Positions 3,241 through 20,788 of a stretch of 64,000 nt of DNA are shown in pieces; position 1 is the first letter of the stretch, and every line of letters begins with the position of its first letter. The DNA is from Bacteroidota bacterium. Lineage in GTDB: Bacteria > Bacteroidota > Bacteroidia > M30B66. The translations under genes were made by a program, and so were the position numbers. The stretch lies in NCBI GenBank assembly GCA_027483445.1, contig JAIXUS010000078.1, positions 24,792 through 88,791 of the forward strand. The letters run 5' to 3'. The notes under the pieces were generated by a model. That model was not told the DNA's origin, ran no database searches, and worked only from the letters and a program-made list of their open reading frames with translations.

Positions 3241-4704
3241 ATGCGTAAACACCTCATTTTTCTTTTTCTGTTAGCCGGTTTATCGGCCACGGCCAAAAGT
3301 GGTAAACCGCAGGCTGTTCTTCTTCACAGCTGCTTTATGATGTCGGGCAAAAACCCGTATGTCGAAACCTTTTTGATGGTAAGAGGAAGCAGCGTGCAAT
3401 ACCGAAAAAACGACTACGGAAATTACCAGGCCAGCATCGAAGTGATTCTAACACTCTCAGAAGGTGGGGTCATCCGCTTTGCGGACAAATACAATTTATT
3501 AAGCCCTGAAACCCAGGATTCGCTTACCGAGAACTTCAATTTCATCGACCAACAACGAATCCCTGTTCCAAACGGGCAGTATAGTCTGGGCATCCGAATT
3601 AAAGACCTTCATGCCGATGGTGAGGCGATTGAAGCCGAAGTGCATGTAAGCGTAAATTTTGCACCTGACTCAATTACTATTTCTGATATTCAGCTCATTG
3701 AGCGTTACGAAAAGGCCGAAAAGCCAGGTCCACTCTACAAAGGCGGCTTTACATTGGTTCAGAAACTGGGCGATTTTTATCCGGTTGATGAAAACCGATT
3801 GGCTTTTTATGCAGAAGTGTACCGGAGTTTAGAACGCTTAGGTGAAAATCAGAAATACCTGTTAAGCTGGCATATCGACGACCGTAAATCAGGCAAGCGA
3901 ATGGAGGAATACAGCGGCTTTCGTCGATTTACAACAGCCATGGTAAATAGCGCACTGGCCGAAATTGACATCAGTCGTTTGCCCTCCGGCGAATATTCCT
4001 TACAGCTTGAGGTGAGAGACCAGCAAAACACGGTGCAGCAAAGCAAAAAGCTGAATTTCTCGCGTTACAATCCGCAACAAATCACAAATCTGGAAAGCCT
4101 TGTCACCGTTGTTACAGCGGGGTCGTTTGCCGAGAATTATAAAAACCCCGACAGTTTGGCGGAGCATATTCGCTGCCTTTCGCCCATTTCGTCGCCCATG
4201 GAGCGGACATTCGCAGGTAATCTGTTGAAGGAGAAGAACCTCGAAAACATGAAGCAGTATTTTCTCACCTTTTGGGAAAACCGCGATGCCAAAGAGCCTT
4301 CTAAGGCTTGGGAAACCTATTACCTCGAGGTTCGTAAGGTGCAGAATTCCTTCGGAACATCAATTAAGAAAGGCTACAGCACCGATCGGGGCCGTGTGTA
4401 TTTGCAGTATGGGCCTCCCGATAACCGAACTGTAAGTTTGCGCGAACCATCGGCTTACCCTTACGAAATCTGGCATTATTACAAGATGAAGAACCAAACC
4501 AACCGGCGATTCGTTTTTTACAATCCCGACTTGGTTACCAACGACTTCTCATTACTCCATTCAGATGCTTTGGGCGAGCCTCAAAACGATCAGTGGATGT
4601 TCTTCATTATGAAGCGCGACACGCAAACGAACGACATAGACGCGGAGATTTCCGACCCTCATTTTGGTTCGCAGCTTCGCGAAAATTTCCTAACGCCCCG
4701 TTAA
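3241..4704 (+). CDS. GWxTD domain-containing protein (signal peptide, N-terminal beta-sandwich)
   Basis: GYSTDRGRVYLQYGPP and YEIWHYY motifs of the GWxTD family. Confidence 0.85.
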   Translation: MRKHLIFLFLLAGLSATAKSGKPQAVLLHSCFMMSGKNPYVETFLMVRGSSVQYRKNDYGNYQASIEVILTLSEGGVIRFADKYNLLSPETQDSLTENFNFIDQQRIPVPNGQYSLGIRIKDLHADGEAIEAEVHVSVNFAPDSITISDIQLIERYEKAEKPGPLYKGGFTLVQKLGDFYPVDENRLAFYAEVYRSLERLGENQKYLLSWHIDDRKSGKRMEEYSGFRRFTTAMVNSALAEIDISRLPSGEYSLQLEVRDQQNTVQQSKKLNFSRYNPQQITNLESLVTVVTAGSFAENYKNPDSLAEHIRCLSPISSPMERTFAGNLLKEKNLENMKQYFLTFWENRDAKEPSKAWETYYLEVRKVQNSFGTSIKKGYSTDRGRVYLQYGPPDNRTVSLREPSAYPYEIWHYYKMKNQTNRRFVFYNPDLVTNDFSLLHSDALGEPQNDQWMFFIMKRDTQTNDIDAEISDPHFGSQLRENFLTPR

Positions 4705-5561
4705 TGCTGTATTGGCTCATCCGCAGTGTTGGAGCCTTACCGGCACTGTTGCCCCTTCGGATGCTTTATCCTTTATCTACAGCACTTTCCTGGTTTACAG
4801 GTGCCTTGTTTGGCTATCGCCGGATGGTTGTAGAGCAAAACCTTCGCAACGCATTCCCAGACTTTAGTCCAGCACAATTGCGCGAAGCGGTAAAACAGTT
4901 TTACATGCATTTTACCGACACCCTGGTTGAAACCTATGCCATGCTGGCCATGCGCAAGGATAGGCTCCCTCAACGCATTCGTGTGAAAAATCCTGAATTG
5001 CTGAACCATTATTTCGCCCAGGGGAAATCGGTAATTGCGGTTGGTGGTCACTTCGGCAACTGGGAATGGCTGGGTACCGCGCTGCCTTTGCTCAGCCGCT
5101 ACCCCGTATTGGCTGCCTACCGTCCGCTGTCGAACCCGAGTGTCGACAAATTGATGCGCGAAATTCGCAGCATTCATGGAACCAGACTTCTGCCCGACAC
5201 GCAGATTTATCGAGCCATGCGCAGTAGCACCGAACCCGTGCTCACCTACCTGATAGCCGATCAGAGTCCGCTTCCTGAAAACGCGCGCTGGCTCCGGTTT
5301 TTAAATCAGGAAACCCCTGTTTTTATGGGACCCGAAAAAATGGCCCGCGCATGCAATGCCGTTGTTGTATTTTTGGCCATGCGACGCATTCAACGAGGCT
5401 ATTATGAAGTGGAGGTGCTGCCGGTGACGGAAAACCCTATGGAGGAAGACGATCTGGCCATCACCAAACGCCATGTTCAACTGCTCGAAAATGAAATTCG
5501 GACTATGCCTTCAGCATGGCTCTGGTCGCACAAACGCTGGAAACACCGCAAGCCGCAATGA
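4704..5561 (+). CDS. Lipid A biosynthesis / lysophospholipid acyltransferase (LpxL/HtrB family)
   Basis: GGHFGNWE, IADQSP, FMGPEKMA, WLWSHKRWK motifs. Start moved to ATG 4704 (TAATG overlap with the upstream stop). Confidence 0.88.
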   Translation: MLYWLIRSVGALPALLPLRMLYPLSTALSWFTGALFGYRRMVVEQNLRNAFPDFSPAQLREAVKQFYMHFTDTLVETYAMLAMRKDRLPQRIRVKNPELLNHYFAQGKSVIAVGGHFGNWEWLGTALPLLSRYPVLAAYRPLSNPSVDKLMREIRSIHGTRLLPDTQIYRAMRSSTEPVLTYLIADQSPLPENARWLRFLNQETPVFMGPEKMARACNAVVVFLAMRRIQRGYYEVEVLPVTENPMEEDDLAITKRHVQLLENEIRTMPSAWLWSHKRWKHRKPQ

Positions 5562-14559: not shown

Positions 14560-16098
14560 TTACAATTTTAGCGTCAATTCAATAGTGCCTAAACGAATTC
14601 GGTCGCCACTTTGAATGAGCTTTTTGCGGATACGCTCACCATTCACAAAAGTTCCATTTGTACTTCCCATATCCTCCAGCTCGATACCCTCTTTGAGTTT
14701 ACGTACAACGGCGTGCCTTCCGGTAATGGTTATTTCTTTAATAATGATATCGTTCGTATCGTGCCGGCCAATTACGGTTTCCTCTTTTTCGAGTGGATAG
14801 CTTTGGGTTCTACCATTTTGACTCACCAAAAGAACAGGCCCTGAGGGGACAGGCGGTTTGGGCGTTGTGCTACGAATCGGCTCATGTGTGTTGCGTTCGC
14901 CGCTTACCACGGCCGACTGAACACGCGGATTGGTAAACCCTCCGGTGCGAAGCACAGTTGCTTGATTCTCAATGGGTGCAAGCAATTCGGTTTCCTCTTC
15001 TGAATTGCTTTGCGCACGTGACTTTCGCTTCGAAAAGAGGTTAATCATAATCATCATAACCACGATTAGCCCGAAAATACCTACCGAAATCCAGAGGTAT
15101 TTCTTGTAATCATCAGGAATAAACTCTTCGCTGTTGGGCGCATTCAAAATGAGAATCTGACGGGAGCCTTTGAACTTCAAATCGACTTTAGCCGTGCGCA
15201 ATTGCAATGGGTCGGTTACGGTAAATCGGGCTTCGTAAAACGCATCTTTCATGCTTTCGGGCACCGGAAGATTGAGAATGTCGGTTATGGCATTGGTGAT
15301 TTCAACTTCCGATTTACAATTGAAGTATTTACCTCCAGTTTTACGGCTAATTAAGTCCATGCGCCCCGCACTGTAAGCGCTATCATTCATTAGAATGGTA
15401 AGCGAATGAATAGGAATTCCAAATTCTTTGGCTTTTCCGATTACTTCGCTGCTTGTAGCCGGGTACTGGCTGTTGTTTCGGGCTGCCGACAATACAATGA
15501 ACAGCCTGTGCTGTGGTAGCGAAGATTGAGCGAACATCTTGTCGAGCGACGACAGTATATTCTTGTACAAGTCAGACCTTCGGGCGGTATCTTCAACAGC
15601 ACGAAGTCGCGATAGCAAAGCTTCACGGATGCGTCCGTGACTTGTGGTAAACTCCGAGTTGAGCAAGGTTAGTCCCGTACTGTCAACTTCAAAAGAGCCA
15701 AAATATCCTACATTGATTAAGTCCTCAGGCTCAAGATTGTCCAACGCATTCACCATACCGTCGCGAATGCCGATGAGGCTTTTCCCAAAAGTATTTCCAG
15801 AAGCTTCAAGAAGAAAAAACACAGCCCGTCCTCGCTCAGGGGCTGCTCCAGGAGCGCTTTCGTTGATGGTAAACTGAATTAACTTGTTGTCTTGAGAAAC
15901 ACTCAAATCATTCTCATCAAACTTTTTCCGCCCTTTATATACAAGTTGAACCCGAATTTCAGGGAATGCCGATGTGTCGACCGATAAAACCTGTAATTCC
16001 TGAGCCTTGGCAGGAAAGGTGATCAACACTACCAAACAAGTCCAAACGAGTCCTTTCAGAATCCCGATGTATGACCTTTGTTGACAAAGCAAGCGCAT
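14560..16098 (-). CDS. Signal peptide - VWA domain - TM helix - C-terminal FHA domain protein (start uncertain, 16098 or 16110)
   Basis: VWA strands FFLLEASG, FIVLSAA, IPIHSL, SRKTGGKYF; TM YLWISVGIFGLIVVMMIMINLF; FHA IGRHDTND...TGRHAVV...DMGSTNGTFVNG. Confidence 0.85.
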   Translation of the reverse strand: MRLLCQQRSYIGILKGLVWTCLVVLITFPAKAQELQVLSVDTSAFPEIRVQLVYKGRKKFDENDLSVSQDNKLIQFTINESAPGAAPERGRAVFFLLEASGNTFGKSLIGIRDGMVNALDNLEPEDLINVGYFGSFEVDSTGLTLLNSEFTTSHGRIREALLSRLRAVEDTARRSDLYKNILSSLDKMFAQSSLPQHRLFIVLSAARNNSQYPATSSEVIGKAKEFGIPIHSLTILMNDSAYSAGRMDLISRKTGGKYFNCKSEVEITNAITDILNLPVPESMKDAFYEARFTVTDPLQLRTAKVDLKFKGSRQILILNAPNSEEFIPDDYKKYLWISVGIFGLIVVMMIMINLFSKRKSRAQSNSEEETELLAPIENQATVLRTGGFTNPRVQSAVVSGERNTHEPIRSTTPKPPVPSGPVLLVSQNGRTQSYPLEKEETVIGRHDTNDIIIKEITITGRHAVVRKLKEGIELEDMGSTNGTFVNGERIRKKLIQSGDRIRLGTIELTLKL

Positions 16099-16223
16099 AG
16101 CATTCTGCACGATGGAAAGATTACGTTTTTCTTGTGTTTAATGGCAAAAATGGGAAAAATAGGCGCGTTATTTTTGTGGCCTAACCACAGTTATTAACTA
16201 AATTATTTACATATTCGGGGGAC

Positions 16224-16958
16224 ATGAAAGAACTCTTTACGCTAATCAAATCAATGCTGGGCGACCGCTACGAACGCCGGGTACAAATCGTTGTTTTCAC
16301 TTCGGTGCTTATGCTTAGCCTTGTATACTATCTGGGTTCAGGTTCTGTGTTGGGTTTGAAGGTTTATTCGCTTAACCACAACTCAATATGGCTTAGTCCG
16401 CTTGCCGCTCGTTGCCTTTGGGCCCTATTGTGTTTTTGCTGTTATGCCTGCATTCCATTTTTGGTTTCGCGCTTCGTCCTCGGTATTCCTCTAAATGCCC
16501 AGGGGTTTACGCTTCGCATTCCGCCCACCCATGTAAAGGGTTACTGGGCTGCCGCCGGATTCATGTTTCCACTGGTATTGGCCGCTTCGTTTTTGCCGGC
16601 GTTTCAACGCACCTACCCATTTGTTGAGTTACAACTCGAGCCGTTTGCGTGGAAGGAATTTCTGATTTGGGAGTTTTTCTATCTGCTCCAATTTGTGGGT
16701 GTTGAGTACTTTTTTCGGAGTTTCTTACTTTTTCCATTGGCTGAAAAATTTGGGAAAATGACAGTCTACCTCTCAATTTTACCCTATGTGATGATTCATT
16801 TCGGTAAGCCCTTGCCTGAAACTTTAGCGGCCGCGTTCGCGGGATGGCTCCTCGGTAACCTAGCTCTGCGTTCCGGAAGTATTGTGCCCGGAATTGCCTT
16901 GCATTTTGGTGTGGCCTTGAGTATGGATGTACTCAGCCTTTGGCAACAAAGCCGATGA
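16224..16958 (+). CDS. CPBP (Abi/CAAX-like) intramembrane metalloprotease
   Basis: Multiple TM helices; VEYFFR, IHFGKP and IALH motifs. Confidence 0.8.
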   Translation: MKELFTLIKSMLGDRYERRVQIVVFTSVLMLSLVYYLGSGSVLGLKVYSLNHNSIWLSPLAARCLWALLCFCCYACIPFLVSRFVLGIPLNAQGFTLRIPPTHVKGYWAAAGFMFPLVLAASFLPAFQRTYPFVELQLEPFAWKEFLIWEFFYLLQFVGVEYFFRSFLLFPLAEKFGKMTVYLSILPYVMIHFGKPLPETLAAAFAGWLLGNLALRSGSIVPGIALHFGVALSMDVLSLWQQSR

Positions 16959-16973
16959 AGCTCAAGCTATATA

Positions 16974-17598
16974 TCACTTTTCTGAAATTTCCAAGAATTA
17001 TCTGAATCCAACAGAATTGCTTTTTGAATCACCTTCTTTAAATTCTTCGGTTGCCTCAATTTTCATAGATTCTTGATTGTCAGTCCAACCTCCTCCTTTT
17101 GTTTTTCCTTTTGTTGAAATCACTTCTGCAATATTACCGCTCATTGTATTTAGCCCAAAATTGTTGGGCCAATAAGCGTTAACATTCGCTTCTGTATTTT
17201 TTTCTTTTACTTGAGTTATACTGTTAAGTTAACCAGTCACAATAAAGCAAAGCAGCTTCATACGAAACATTTACCAATGGATGATTGCTGTAGGCTTTAT
17301 GATTAAGATAATATTTAATATATGGGTGTTCTTTATCATTGTTTTCATTACAGTTTGCAGTATCAATTTGTGCAACATTTAGTTGCTCCTTCAGTTTGTT
17401 CAGCTTTAGAAACAATCGAAAATCTGAGTATTGTTTATTTGTTACTTCAAATTTAGATGCCAACAAGGAATCATTAATTTTCACGAATGATTCCTTTATA
17501 TCCTTTCTGCTGAAATTGATTTGTTGAGCAAAAACGTTCGCTAAAAACAAAAAGAGTAATGTGGTTAAAAATAGTTGTTTAAAAGTTAGTTCTAGCAT
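16974..17598 (-). pseudogene. Formylglycine-generating-enzyme/sulfatase-modifying (SUMF1/GldK-like) family pseudogene
   Basis: FEVTNKQY...HPLVNVSYEAALLYCDWLT*QYNSSK, then after a frameshift YWPNNFGLNTMSGNIAEV...KGGGW...NSVGFR*FLEI. Two nonsense codons (17224-17226, 16998-17000); the central RLPTEAEWE segment is missing. Confidence 0.8.
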
Positions 17599-17610
17599 GT
17601 TTTTTCGATA

Positions 17611-17733
17611 TGTGACGAGGCTTTGAGAAAGTGGTTCCATTACCCTGCGATCTTGTTTTGAAAACCAATGCCCAATCTAACGAAACCGTTATAAAAAAAA
17701 CCAACCGCAACTTTTGCAATACCGCTGTTATGT
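17611..17733 (-). repeat. attC-like imperfect inverted repeat between the deacetylase gene and the FGE pseudogene
   Basis: Minus strand reads ACATAACAGCGGTATTGCAAAAGTTGCGG ... CCACTTTCTCAAAGCCTCGTCACA just after the upstream stop codon; the right arm is degenerate. Confidence 0.5.
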
Positions 17734-17738
17734 GCTGC

Positions 17739-18689
17739 CTATTTCTGATTCGTTCTCTTTTTATATTGCTCTAAATAACTTTCTAAGGGGGCTTTTTCAT
17801 ACTCTCCATCTTCAGCTGGATAGCGTAATTCTTTTGAAATCCAATCTATCTCCTTTGCGCATTGCCAAATTATACTTTCTCCACAAGGGACTATACTGGG
17901 TTGTAATTGAAACACATCATCAGTAAACGCATCTTTGGCGTCAATTAATTTCCACCCATTTGCATTCAGTTCATTTAGCAAATCGTTGAGAAATAAAGCG
18001 TTTAATAAAGAATGATGTATTAGCAGCGTGTGTTTTATGTCTCTTTTAAACAACAAGTGTGCTAATGAATCATAATAATTAACTCTATCTAAAATATGCT
18101 TTATGTAGTATTCTTTGTAGGGTGTTAAATCGGCATTAATGTCTTTTTGCAATGCGGTAGTTAATTGGGCATCAATGAACCAGTCCGATGCATCAATAGT
18201 CACATAGCCATTTTTGTAACCTTCATTCTTCAATACATATCTCATCGAATCTCTCTTTTCAACAGAGTTTCCTTCTTTTAGAAAAGGAAATCTGAATAGT
18301 TGATTGTAATTTTTGTAGTTTCTAATTATACTATCGCCTTTTTTAAAATCGGCAACATAAATCTTACTTGTTATTGATTTTGAATTATAATATAAGTGTG
18401 AATATGAATGATTACAAATCAAATGATTTTTCGAATCCCAATTATTTAATAATACCTTTCCATTATAATTATCAACGCGCATTCCACAAACAAAAAGGGC
18501 AGCTTTAATTTTATGTAAATCAAGCGTTTTTAAAATCATGCTATCTCTTACCAACCAATTTAATTTAGGTGTTTCTTTGGTAGTCGGGTCGTCTATTGTA
18601 ATTGCAATCTGCTTTTGAGCAAATGTTGAGCTATTCAGTATGCAAAAGAATATTCCGGCTAGTATTGTCTTCCTGTATCTTCTTTTCAT
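17739..18689 (-). CDS. Polysaccharide deacetylase family (NodB/CE4) protein, secreted, AT-rich
   Basis: IAITIDD, LICNHSYSH, FRFPFL, LLIHH motifs; N-terminal signal peptide; composition clearly more AT-rich than flanking core genes. Confidence 0.88.
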   Translation of the reverse strand: MKRRYRKTILAGIFFCILNSSTFAQKQIAITIDDPTTKETPKLNWLVRDSMILKTLDLHKIKAALFVCGMRVDNYNGKVLLNNWDSKNHLICNHSYSHLYYNSKSITSKIYVADFKKGDSIIRNYKNYNQLFRFPFLKEGNSVEKRDSMRYVLKNEGYKNGYVTIDASDWFIDAQLTTALQKDINADLTPYKEYYIKHILDRVNYYDSLAHLLFKRDIKHTLLIHHSLLNALFLNDLLNELNANGWKLIDAKDAFTDDVFQLQPSIVPCGESIIWQCAKEIDWISKELRYPAEDGEYEKAPLESYLEQYKKRTNQK

Positions 18690-18714
18690 GTGTTTGTCGG
18701 GATTTTTTGTTAGG

Positions 18715-18790
18715 TTGCAAATAACTAGTATTTATCTGCCTATCTATTGCATATTTTTCGTTTTTCGGTTACGAATTAACGCTCATTTAC
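18715..18790 (-). other. Putative cassette 5' boundary (GTTAT-TTGCAA core site plus residual arm)
   Basis: Minus strand ...ATGCAATAGATAGGCAGATAAATACTA GTTAT TTGCAACCTAACAAAAAATCCCGACAAACAC ATG; GTTAT at 18725-18721. Confidence 0.4.
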
Positions 18791-18819
18791 TCACCTTTCA
18801 AAGCCAACTTTACATACCT

Positions 18820-19090
18820 AGTCCGGTTTTAGGGTTGCGCCTGTGTATCGGTTGTTTCGCAGTGCCCGGGTTGTTGGAATACTCGGGCTGCGCAGGTTTG
18901 GTTGGGACCTACAGTGGTTTATTGGGACCGGAAAAGACGTAAAAGCATGTGGTGGGTAACAGGGTGAAAGGTTATTACCGTTATCACCAAGGCTCGGCCC
19001 TGGTGGTGTCTCAGGTGTAAGGAGAGGGCCGGGCCGTGTATTTCGGGGTTTCCGCCTTGGTTGATGGGTATTCAGTAGGCGGCAATTGAA
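18820..19090 (+). other. GC-rich multi-hairpin intergenic element (candidate ncRNA or decayed REP cluster)
   Basis: Stems at 18864-18888, 18951-18979, 18992-19034 and 19052-19082; three of them use G-U pairs on the + strand. Confidence 0.35.
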
Positions 19091-19146
19091 TGAAAGCATG
19101 AATTAGGCATTAAGCCTGTGGGCATGCTGATTTAAGTCAGTAGGGC

Positions 19147-19755
19147 TTATTTGCGCTTGGCTAGCTCGTCGCGGATTCTTCCGGCTTTTTCATAAGCCTC
19201 GTCCTCAATGGCCGACTTCAGCATGTCCTTTAATTCATCTTTGCTTTTACGACTAAGCTCATCGCCTGAGTCGGACGGAACGGCATTGCTCACGCTGGCT
19301 TCCGCTGCCATACCGGTATCTTCCTTTGCAGAGGAAGGGTCATCATCGATAAGAATACCCGCAGAACTGAGAATGAATTCGTAGGTGTAAATCGGACAGC
19401 TGAAGCGAACGGCCAAAGCAATGGCATCGCTGGTTCGGGCATCAACCTCCACGTCGTTGGCTCCGTTTTGCTGGCAGATCAATTTTGCATAAAAAATGCC
19501 TTCTACCAAGTTGTAAATCACCACCTCTTTAACGGTAATGGAAAAAGACTCGGCAAAAGCCTTGAACAAATCGTGGGTCAAGGGACGTGAGGGGGCCATT
19601 TTTTCGAGTTCTATGGCGATGGCTTGGGCTTCAAAACCGCCAATAATGATGGGTAATCGGCGTTTTCCGTTGCTCTCTCCCAGCACCAGCGCGTAAGCTC
19701 CGCTTTGCGTTTGGCTGTATGAAAGGCCTGAGATATCCAGCTTAATCTTCTTCAT
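19147..19755 (-). CDS. Bifunctional nuclease family (DUF151) protein with C-terminal UVR motif
   Basis: RRLPIIIGGFEAQAIA, RPLTHDL, DARTSDAIALA, EDEAYEKAGRIRDEL. Confidence 0.9.
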   Translation of the reverse strand: MKKIKLDISGLSYSQTQSGAYALVLGESNGKRRLPIIIGGFEAQAIAIELEKMAPSRPLTHDLFKAFAESFSITVKEVVIYNLVEGIFYAKLICQQNGANDVEVDARTSDAIALAVRFSCPIYTYEFILSSAGILIDDDPSSAKEDTGMAAEASVSNAVPSDSGDELSRKSKDELKDMLKSAIEDEAYEKAGRIRDELAKRK

Positions 19756-19810
19756 GCTTGGTCTGATGAAAGTACGAAACTTTCGGCAGATAATTTAAAC
19801 CTGAATAAAA

Positions 19811-20788
19811 TCAGGAATTGGCTGCTTTAAATTTACGGAAGGCTTCTGTTAGGCGGGGCACCACTTCCATGGCATCGCCCACTACACCATAATCGGCGGC
19901 TTTGAAAAATGGAGCTTCAGGATCTTTGTTGATCACTACAATCACCTTTGAGCCGTTTACCCCGGCCAAATGCTGAATGGCTCCTGAAATTCCTACAGCA
20001 ATATATAAGTTGGGTCGGATGGCAATACCGGTTTGTCCAACGTGCTCGTGGTGAGGCCTCCAACCAATGTCAGATACCGGTCTGCTACACGCTGTAGCTG
20101 CACCCATCGTTTCGGCCAATTCTTCAATAATGTTCCAGTTGGATGGGTCCTTCATTCCACGTCCGGCCGATACTACAAGCTCAGCTTCAGTGAGGAGCAC
20201 TCCACCTTTGTGTTCACGTACTTTTTTCTCGATTTTCAACGACGATTGCACGCCGGCCAGAGCCGCGTCGAATGCTTCTACTGCTGCGGCGGAACCATTT
20301 TTTTGCGCAGGCACAGAGTTCGGCAGTAAGGTAATCACCTTTACCTCTGTGTTCATCTGATATTCGGCCAATGCCTTTCCGGAGAATACGTTCTTTCTTA
20401 CCACAAATCCGCTGCTGGTGTCGGGCAAGGCTACTGCGCCAGAAACGAGACCGGCTTTGAGCCTGGCGGCAATGCGCGGTGCAACCGAACGTCCGGCATA
20501 GTCGTGACTAAACACCACGATTTTAGCACTGCTGGCCTCAACGGCCTTTAGCACAAGCTGTTCAACGAGCATCGGATCGAAGTGCCCTGGAAGGTTGGTG
20601 GCCAGCAACACCTTGCTTACCCCAAACTCGCCTGCGCGGGCGGCCTCCTCATTGGAGATGGCGCCACCAACAACAGCGGTTGCCGTGGTTTGAAGTTGTG
20701 CAGCAATCTGCGCTCCGTAAGAAATGGCTTCCAATGAAGCCTTCTTGATCGAACCTTTGGCGGTTTCGGCAAAAATGAGAACTGACAT
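19811..20788 (-). CDS. etfA: Electron transfer flavoprotein alpha subunit
   Basis: LVVSAGRG, ACSRPVSD, HVGQTG, LYIAVGISGAIQHLAG, INKDPEAPFF. Confidence 0.96.
   Translation of the reverse strand: MSVLIFAETAKGSIKKASLEAISYGAQIAAQLQTTATAVVGGAISNEEAARAGEFGVSKVLLATNLPGHFDPMLVEQLVLKAVEASSAKIVVFSHDYAGRSVAPRIAARLKAGLVSGAVALPDTSSGFVVRKNVFSGKALAEYQMNTEVKVITLLPNSVPAQKNGSAAAVEAFDAALAGVQSSLKIEKKVREHKGGVLLTEAELVVSAGRGMKDPSNWNIIEELAETMGAATACSRPVSDIGWRPHHEHVGQTGIAIRPNLYIAVGISGAIQHLAGVNGSKVIVVINKDPEAPFFKAADYGVVGDAMEVVPRLTEAFRKFKAANS

Follow-up and report, generated by a model that had tools for sequence, protein, structure and literature searches.

An AT-rich island in a 64-kb stretch of chromosomal DNA from a Bacteroidota bacterium (contig JAIXUS010000078.1; the whole stretch is called the window below, and coordinates refer to it unless another locus is named) contains two genes, both on the minus strand: a polysaccharide deacetylase gene and a broken FGE-sulfatase gene. 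This island (~16970-18725, with an AT-rich remnant extending to ~18790) is very probably a non-mobile relic of an integron-type cassette array that has become fixed in the chromosome of a freshwater member of the phylum. An initial annotation, made by reading the DNA, had proposed integron-type gene cassettes at this position, and the proposal was borne out: the sequence between the two genes is homologous to attC, the recombination site of integron cassettes, and the motif GTTAT ahead of the deacetylase gene proved to be the exact 5' boundary of its cassette in four sequence contexts. The AT-rich block, the two co-oriented genes, their flanking genes and the sequence strings quoted in that annotation were all present where it had placed them.

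Cassette boundaries and the attC family

The deacetylase cassette begins on the minus strand with an R'-type core, G|TTAT (18725-18721), which is followed by a 31-nucleotide (nt) leader to the ATG; this 5' end spans 18690..18725, and the string GTTATTTGCAA lies at 18725-18715, 36 nt ahead of the ATG. The gene itself (17739..18689, minus strand) is intact and encodes 316 amino acids (aa) with a signal peptide and a CE4/NodB domain (PF01522, E=5e-12). The strings TIDD, HSYSH and RFPFLKEG in its translation match what we take to be the NodB motifs. The protein has 3580 homologues, and the named ones are all from Bacteroidota. DNA homology between the window and its relatives is limited to the deacetylase gene and short flanks: it covers 18726-17724 in loci L081-86 (93% nt identity), 18734-17725 in L087/88 (85%) and 18689-17712 in L089-91 (80%), and these three groups of closest relatives occupy three unrelated neighbourhoods. 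In all four contexts the shared sequence begins at the GTTAT core, either at it or within 9 nt, and the DNA upstream is unrelated. In the window, L081 and L089 the shared sequence ends just past an ATAAC core (ACATAAC or ATATAAC). Thus, the same cassette occurs in different contexts with its boundary at the G|TT of an R' core.

In L081-L086 the deacetylase gene has a textbook attC on both sides, for example ACATAAC AGCAGCTACAAGAAATTGG ... CCAACTTCTTGTAGCTGC AAAAC GTTAC. The cassette beyond the next attC differs among L081, L082 and L085, which otherwise share cassettes, and the junctions fall at AAC|GTTA. Judged by these comparisons, the differences are integron-style cassette shuffling.

We searched for further members of the attC family with a 20-nt degenerate pattern taken from the left arms of the attCs of the window and of the L08x loci. 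The pattern matched at least 120 metagenome contigs, and among the matches listed most continue as a ~134-nt element that ends in AAAC GTTA or a one-base variant. A profile of 90 sites yielded 217 attC sites on 127 loci, with a maximum of 7 co-oriented sites in 9.4 kb. In an alignment of 50 family sequences (A1), the L''/L' arms form an 18-bp stem with pairing in 96% of its cells and compensatory double changes at 12 pairs. These values were not attained in any of 500 shuffles, and structures slid by 1-3 columns were paired at 30-45%. Among attC pairs that share one flank, 20 share the upstream flank only and one shares the downstream flank only; therefore, each attC goes with the gene upstream of it, and exchange takes place at R'. 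The attC body is at least 91% identical in 18 of the 20 pairs that share the upstream flank, against a background of 73% (standard deviation 12%). Crossover at R'' was ruled out as a general rule because the attC body travels with the upstream gene in these 18 pairs. Arrays of this family thus differ by whole cassettes, each with its own attC, and the attC of the window is one of the rarer exceptions.

The degraded site and the two cassettes

The attC of the first cassette occupies 126 nt on the minus strand (17610..17735). It consists of R'' ACATAAC (17733-17727), L'' (17726-17705), L' (17636-17617) and R' GTCAC (17616-17612). ACATAAC-AGCGGTATTGCAAAAGTTGCGG stands directly 3' of the deacetylase stop codon (17733-17705), and CAAAGCCTCGTCACA lies at 17626-17612, ahead of the second gene. 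The profile of 90 family sites gave a single significant nhmmer match in the window, at 17734-17617 (E=1.9e-7). A covariance model (R1) matched 17610-17735 over its full length (23.3 bits, E=0.0015), again the only significant match in 64 kb. By homology, this sequence belongs to the R''-L''...L'-R' family with its compensated stem. The site has decayed: canonical pairing is lost at 6 of the 18 positions of the stem, 5 nt are missing ahead of R', and R' itself has become GTCAC in place of GTTA. Its R'' ACATAAC is intact, but it has neither a recombinogenic hairpin of its own nor the full set of canonical RYYYAAC/GTTRRRY cores. The 123-bp imperfect inverted repeat described in the initial annotation is, taken by itself, not above chance: shuffled sequence folds just as well as the 123-136 nt spacer on either strand (z=+0.08 and +0.12), and a repeat search did not list the 123-bp inverted repeat. 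The spacer counts as an attC through its homology to a large family and not through its fold.

What the attC of the window shares with that of L081 is R'' and the next 3 nt only; past ACATAAC-AGC it represents a different attC subtype. A contig from a freshwater metatranscriptome (run X23) that matches 17724-17860 contains the 3' end of a deacetylase cassette with ~95% identity; at exactly 17724 it departs from the window and continues as a third type of attC body. The X23 contig indicates that the deacetylase cassette is transcribed somewhere, and that its attC was exchanged at the R'' core on at least two occasions. The composition of the window site suggests that it is the product of an internal deletion or of an exchange between attC left ends.

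The cargo of the first cassette has been kept. With a ratio of nonsynonymous to synonymous substitution rates (dN/dS) of 0.13 between the window deacetylase and that of L081, the gene is evidently maintained; by this measure it is under purifying selection and now resembles an ordinary resident gene. Its GC content (0.319) is like that of cassette arrays. No promoter motif of the Bacteroidota type (TAnnTTTG) was found upstream of either island gene, and no sigma-70-like site upstream of the deacetylase gene. Likewise, there is no terminator-like site between the deacetylase gene and the co-oriented ETF-BFN genes, nor elsewhere on the minus strand. Having no promoter of its own and no terminator between it and the ETF-BFN genes upstream, the deacetylase gene is probably transcribed by read-through from them. 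In L087 (5881-7157), the 85% identical homologue is a lone cassette in an ordinary-looking row of co-oriented genes. The attC of this cassette is weak (-9.2 kcal/mol, no profile match), the upstream flank of the cassette resembles that of the window cassette over ~45 nt, and the cassette may be a second case of domestication.

The second cassette carries an FGE-sulfatase-like pseudogene (16974..17598, minus strand), recognizable in a three-frame translation with PF03781 on its N-terminal part. This part (17598-17224; PF03781, E=1.5e-7) has a signal peptide and is cut short by an in-frame TAA; the C-terminal part continues in a different frame and runs to 16998. Intact FGE homologues have 266 aa. 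Three lesions disrupt the gene: the TAA (17226-17224), an internal deletion of net 191 nt that shifts the frame near 17185-17194, and a stop at 17000-16998, ~8 codons early. Loci L212 and L213 match the window at 84% nt identity in two blocks, and the 195-199 nt between the blocks are missing from the window. In both loci the FGE cassette starts at a GTTAC core, 5 nt ahead of the first ATG, and the preceding DNA is unrelated. In L213 an attC follows right after the FGE stop (GGTAAC AGCGGTTTTGC ... GCAAAGCCGCGGCCC GTTGTGC), and the window has no counterpart of it. The premature FGE stop is polymorphic, with T17225G (a Ser codon) in contigs of runs X5 and X7, two other lake studies. These contigs lack the stop yet have the 191-nt deletion, and therefore the deletion is older than the stop.

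Homology to the FGE cassettes extends as far as 16970, which leaves 12 nt to the stop codon of CPBP. At the distal junction (16959..16973, unstranded) the second cassette should have its attC, but none is there, and neither the covariance model nor nhmmer gave a match. The view of the island as a functioning array bounded by attC-like sites is not supported: one attC is detectable, but it is degraded, with 12 of 18 stem pairs left, and there is none at the distal end. Immediately upstream of the first cassette, the AT-rich remnant (18726..18790, minus strand) may represent the eroded right arm of an attC that once stood ahead of it. The sequence GGCAGATAAATACTA ahead of the window GTTAT resembles the sequence ahead of the same core in L081 (GGCAAATAAAATGCTGAGAA) and L087 (GCGAGTAAATGATA). 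Within 18726-18790 neither nhmmer nor the covariance model matched, and no hairpin or family likeness was detectable. An attC ending at the 5' GTTAT (18716-18826) was considered and rejected, as its folding is weak (z -1.4 to -2.4) and its profile match unconvincing.

We propose that the island derives from a large AT-rich cassette pool in which crossover takes place at the G|TT of the R' core of ~134-nt attC hairpins, as shown for the related loci. The first cassette comprises the G|TTAT core, the leader, the deacetylase gene and the attC, with its coding sequence kept by selection. The left arm of this attC has stayed intact, and the right arm and R' core have mutated until the hairpin no longer forms. 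In the second cassette the FGE-like gene is dead and the terminal attC has been lost. An internal deletion between two attC left ends may have removed intervening cassettes and produced the hybrid attC. Because there is no recombinase within 64 kb, excision or exchange would no longer be expected.

Chromosomal setting and alternative explanations

The AT-rich block (~16950-18750) has a GC content of 0.27-0.35, compared with ~0.45-0.50 in its flanks. The island as a whole is at 0.324, the 64-kb window at 0.466 and related cassette arrays at 0.33-0.35. On the distal side the island adjoins a CPBP/Rce1-like gene (16224-16958, plus strand; PF02517), and upstream of it lies a BFN/DUF151 gene (19147-19755, minus strand; PF02577). 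In the closest relative, L001 (86% nt identity), synteny is lost exactly at the BFN stop (window 19146, L001 6610), and in L002 a CPBP-VWA/FHA block stands upstream of the ETF genes instead. These arrangements place the island at a rearrangement breakpoint. Its low GC and the loss of synteny in L001 mark the island, as far as such features can tell, as foreign in origin. Beyond BFN, L001 has gpsA-like, cysteine desulfurase-like, glmM-like and dapA-like open reading frames, assigned by eye from their translations.

The BFN stop is separated from the island by a non-coding spacer of 357 nt (18791-19146) with a GC of ~0.50 and a strong G-skew, whose minus strand folds better than shuffles (z=-3.07) and which has no Rfam match. 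A search of Rfam over 16000-20000 at E<=1 likewise returned no match. Comparison of 18726-19146 with the collected loci and with plasmids gave no homologue, and L001 lacks the spacer 18791-19146. Exact-sequence look-ups of the window deacetylase, BFN and CPBP proteins found no other contigs.

Several observations weigh against a relic of a cassette array. The pattern used to collect the family was written to include the left arm of the window site, which makes the nhmmer score circular in part; with the right two-thirds alone, a profile scores E=1.5 window-wide, with its match in register and adjoining the left arm. Evidence independent of the pattern comes from position: the window R'' sits exactly where the 93% identical relative has its own, and L'' matches attCs that were found through gene context before the pattern search. 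No attC is demonstrable at either outer end of the island, so that the array amounts to one internal site and one core. At its 5' end the FGE cassette is less sharply delimited than the deacetylase cassette, as homology to L212 and L213 starts 2 nt before the ATG and 11 nt after a putative GTCAC. A comparison with relatives for an empty site, suggested in the initial annotation, revealed the synteny break in L001 and the moved block in L002 but no empty site in either of these closest relatives, so that the insertion itself is a presumption. The sole matching RNA contig stems from another cassette context and is uninformative on expression in this organism. Fixation of the island, on the other hand, is supported by Logan contigs from the lake metagenomes of four studies (2022-2024), which contain it with both junctions at >=99% identity and have no joint that skips or excises it; such contigs show presence, not absence, and rare excision products would be missed.

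The same contigs bear on a different reading, in which the island is a still-active array without an integrase, served in trans by a recombinase elsewhere in the genome. The intact left arm and R'' of the attC and the canonical GTTAT at the 5' core agree with such activity, as does the mobility of the same cassettes in other genomes. This reading is unlikely, since only two-thirds of the stem pairs of the attC survive, its R' reads GTCAC, 5 nt have been deleted and its fold is indistinguishable from chance; a second attC is missing, the second cassette is a pseudogene, and across the four lake studies the junctions are kept without excision joints. Another reading dispenses with cassettes: the island would be an ordinary horizontal islet or a native deacetylase-FGE operon, its spacer a terminator or regulatory hairpin that resembles an attC by chance. 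The insignificance of the hairpin on its own and the weak right-arm profile would fit this, and a functional link between the two genes is hinted at by the protein P0119, a deacetylase homologue fused to an FGE-sulfatase domain (PF03781). Among the homologues P0093-P0111 and P0119, some are fused to a metallo-beta-lactamase-fold domain (PF00753). The P0119 fusion was rejected as proof of a deacetylase-FGE operon because its FGE domain is distant from that of the window (E=0.15). Moreover, each gene is found alone elsewhere, bounded by attC cores: other cassettes follow the deacetylase gene in L081-86, and unrelated DNA precedes the FGE gene in L212 and L213. The left arm fits the family consensus exactly where the 93% relative has its attC, and the lack of a terminator-like site on the minus strand speaks against a terminator. 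We consider an islet or operon of this kind highly improbable.

Delivery by another mobile element, such as an IS91-family rolling-circle element with a small tyrosine recombinase that carried the attC as a passenger, has equally little to recommend it. In related loci a small Xer-like recombinase (283-302 aa) followed by an IS91-family Y2 transposase adjoins attC. In L081 (217-2225) and L084 such a pair, with a 283-aa recombinase, lies immediately upstream of the 93% identical cassette, and similar pairs abut attC in L188, L200 and L203. The position of the island at a synteny break and the missing terminal attC would also suit this route. The window, however, contains neither IS91 nor recombinase sequences, and homology to L081 begins only at the GTTAT core and not in the insertion sequence. 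Three of the IS91-bearing loci have the flank AAGGTTTNGTNCAAC in common at the attC left end, and an IS91-type element may target these attC sites or hitch-hike on them. A fixed relic of a cassette array remains by far the best account of the island.

Related recombinases and known systems

The description of the island as integrase-less was confirmed for the window: tblastn found no tyrosine recombinase, and a hidden Markov model built from six family recombinases gave a best E of 0.28 on six-frame open reading frames. In four related loci, L166, L173, L131 and L099, a tyrosine recombinase heads the array or the array diverges from it. These array-proximal recombinases have an N-terminal extension, score below the cut-off of the integron-integrase model TIGR02249 and match it in two stretches; the L131 recombinase has nothing that corresponds to residues 182-242 of VchIntIA (2a3v). 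On these alignments the array-proximal recombinase of the related loci is Xer-like and without the IntI additional domain, which agrees with the earlier suggestion of a type specific to Bacteroidota. Where homologues of the L173 recombinase are named, they come from Cytophagales, for example Algoriphagus and Belliella. In L166, L173 and L131 the recombinase is co-oriented with the array, and an attI-like GTTA point lies ~90-260 nt past its stop. The first cassette starts at a GTTA core in each of these three loci, and the attI-like region of L173 (~4640-4730, reverse strand) has two direct repeats, CGCAATAACCTGCG, followed by ACAACC|GTTATAGCC.

We lean, by a modest degree, towards a broader view in which integron-like platforms with an N-extended Xer-like recombinase exist throughout the Bacteroidota, are missed by standard integron tools and have left the relic in the window as a stray. 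If so, the locus shows how cassettes become domesticated as ordinary chromosomal genes, and attC bodies would be swappable at R'', as three different bodies follow ACATAAC-AGC in the window, L081 and X23. Taken alone the locus matters little, being a dead-end remnant with one working gene. It is a clean and datable example of cassette domestication, with the cargo under selection, the recombination site decaying and the neighbouring cassette eroding, and it adds an independent entry to the large pool of Bacteroidota cassettes, whose recombinase is without the characteristic domain of IntI.

The closest known systems are integron cassettes with their attC sites, especially sedentary chromosomal integrons whose attC families are homogeneous (the VCRs of Vibrio), and integrase-less remnants as IntegronFinder defines them, either a CALIN or a lone attC (PMC4889954, PMC9024848); integrase-less relics have been interpreted as degraded integrons (PMC4889954, PMC9024848). 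Like integron cassettes, those described here are promoterless, co-oriented single-gene units with AT-rich cargo. Their attC family shares with integron attC the order R''(..ATAAC)-L''...L'-R'(GTTA..), a covarying stem and crossover at G|TT, and in the related loci the attC travels with the upstream gene and cassette order varies between samples, as in integrons. In contrast to integrons, the recombinase beside this attC family has an N-terminal extension and no IntI-specific domain. Integrons are reported to be very rare in complete Bacteroidetes genomes (PMC9024848), and the window holds no complete integron, that is, no IntI with the additional domain next to attI and an array. The island was also called CALIN-like. 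A CALIN is defined in IntegronFinder 2 as a cluster of at least two attC sites without an integron integrase; the absence of an integrase from the 64-kb window agrees with this, but the family profile and covariance model find a single significant attC, which is degraded and falls below this threshold. The nearest equivalent of the island is a degraded CALIN or a relic with a single attC.

Insertion of cassettes by an integrase at positions other than att sites can place lone cassettes in the ordinary chromosome (bioRxiv 10.1101/2022.09.11.507474). This route leaves a full 3' attC, unlike the island with its missing terminal attC, and such a route would therefore need a later deletion here, or another route would have to be assumed.

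The initial annotation regarded the island as possibly the most novel system in the window. This has to be withdrawn, because the type of the parent system is already published and known in outline: integron-like arrays with an XerD-like recombinase have been described in Bacteroidales as rAID-1 (Ross et al., bioRxiv 10.1101/471110). In gut Bacteroidales, rAID-1 are low-GC, co-directional arrays of immunity genes whose intergenic repeats are "reminiscent of integrons" and which have at their 5' end a tyrosine recombinase of the XerD family in the same orientation (bioRxiv 10.1101/471110). They are defined by an XerD-like recombinase at the 5' end that shares at least 44% identity with BF9343_RS08045 of B. 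fragilis and is followed by at least 2 co-directional genes with a GC of at most 41%. The window has the low-GC, co-directional genes (GC 0.32) but no recombinase, its cargo is a deacetylase and an FGE-like enzyme, and its source is freshwater and not a gut host. The related loci resemble rAID-1: they too belong to Bacteroidota, L166, L173 and L131 have a 5' recombinase co-oriented with the array, and the likeness is one of arrangement, GC and repeats.

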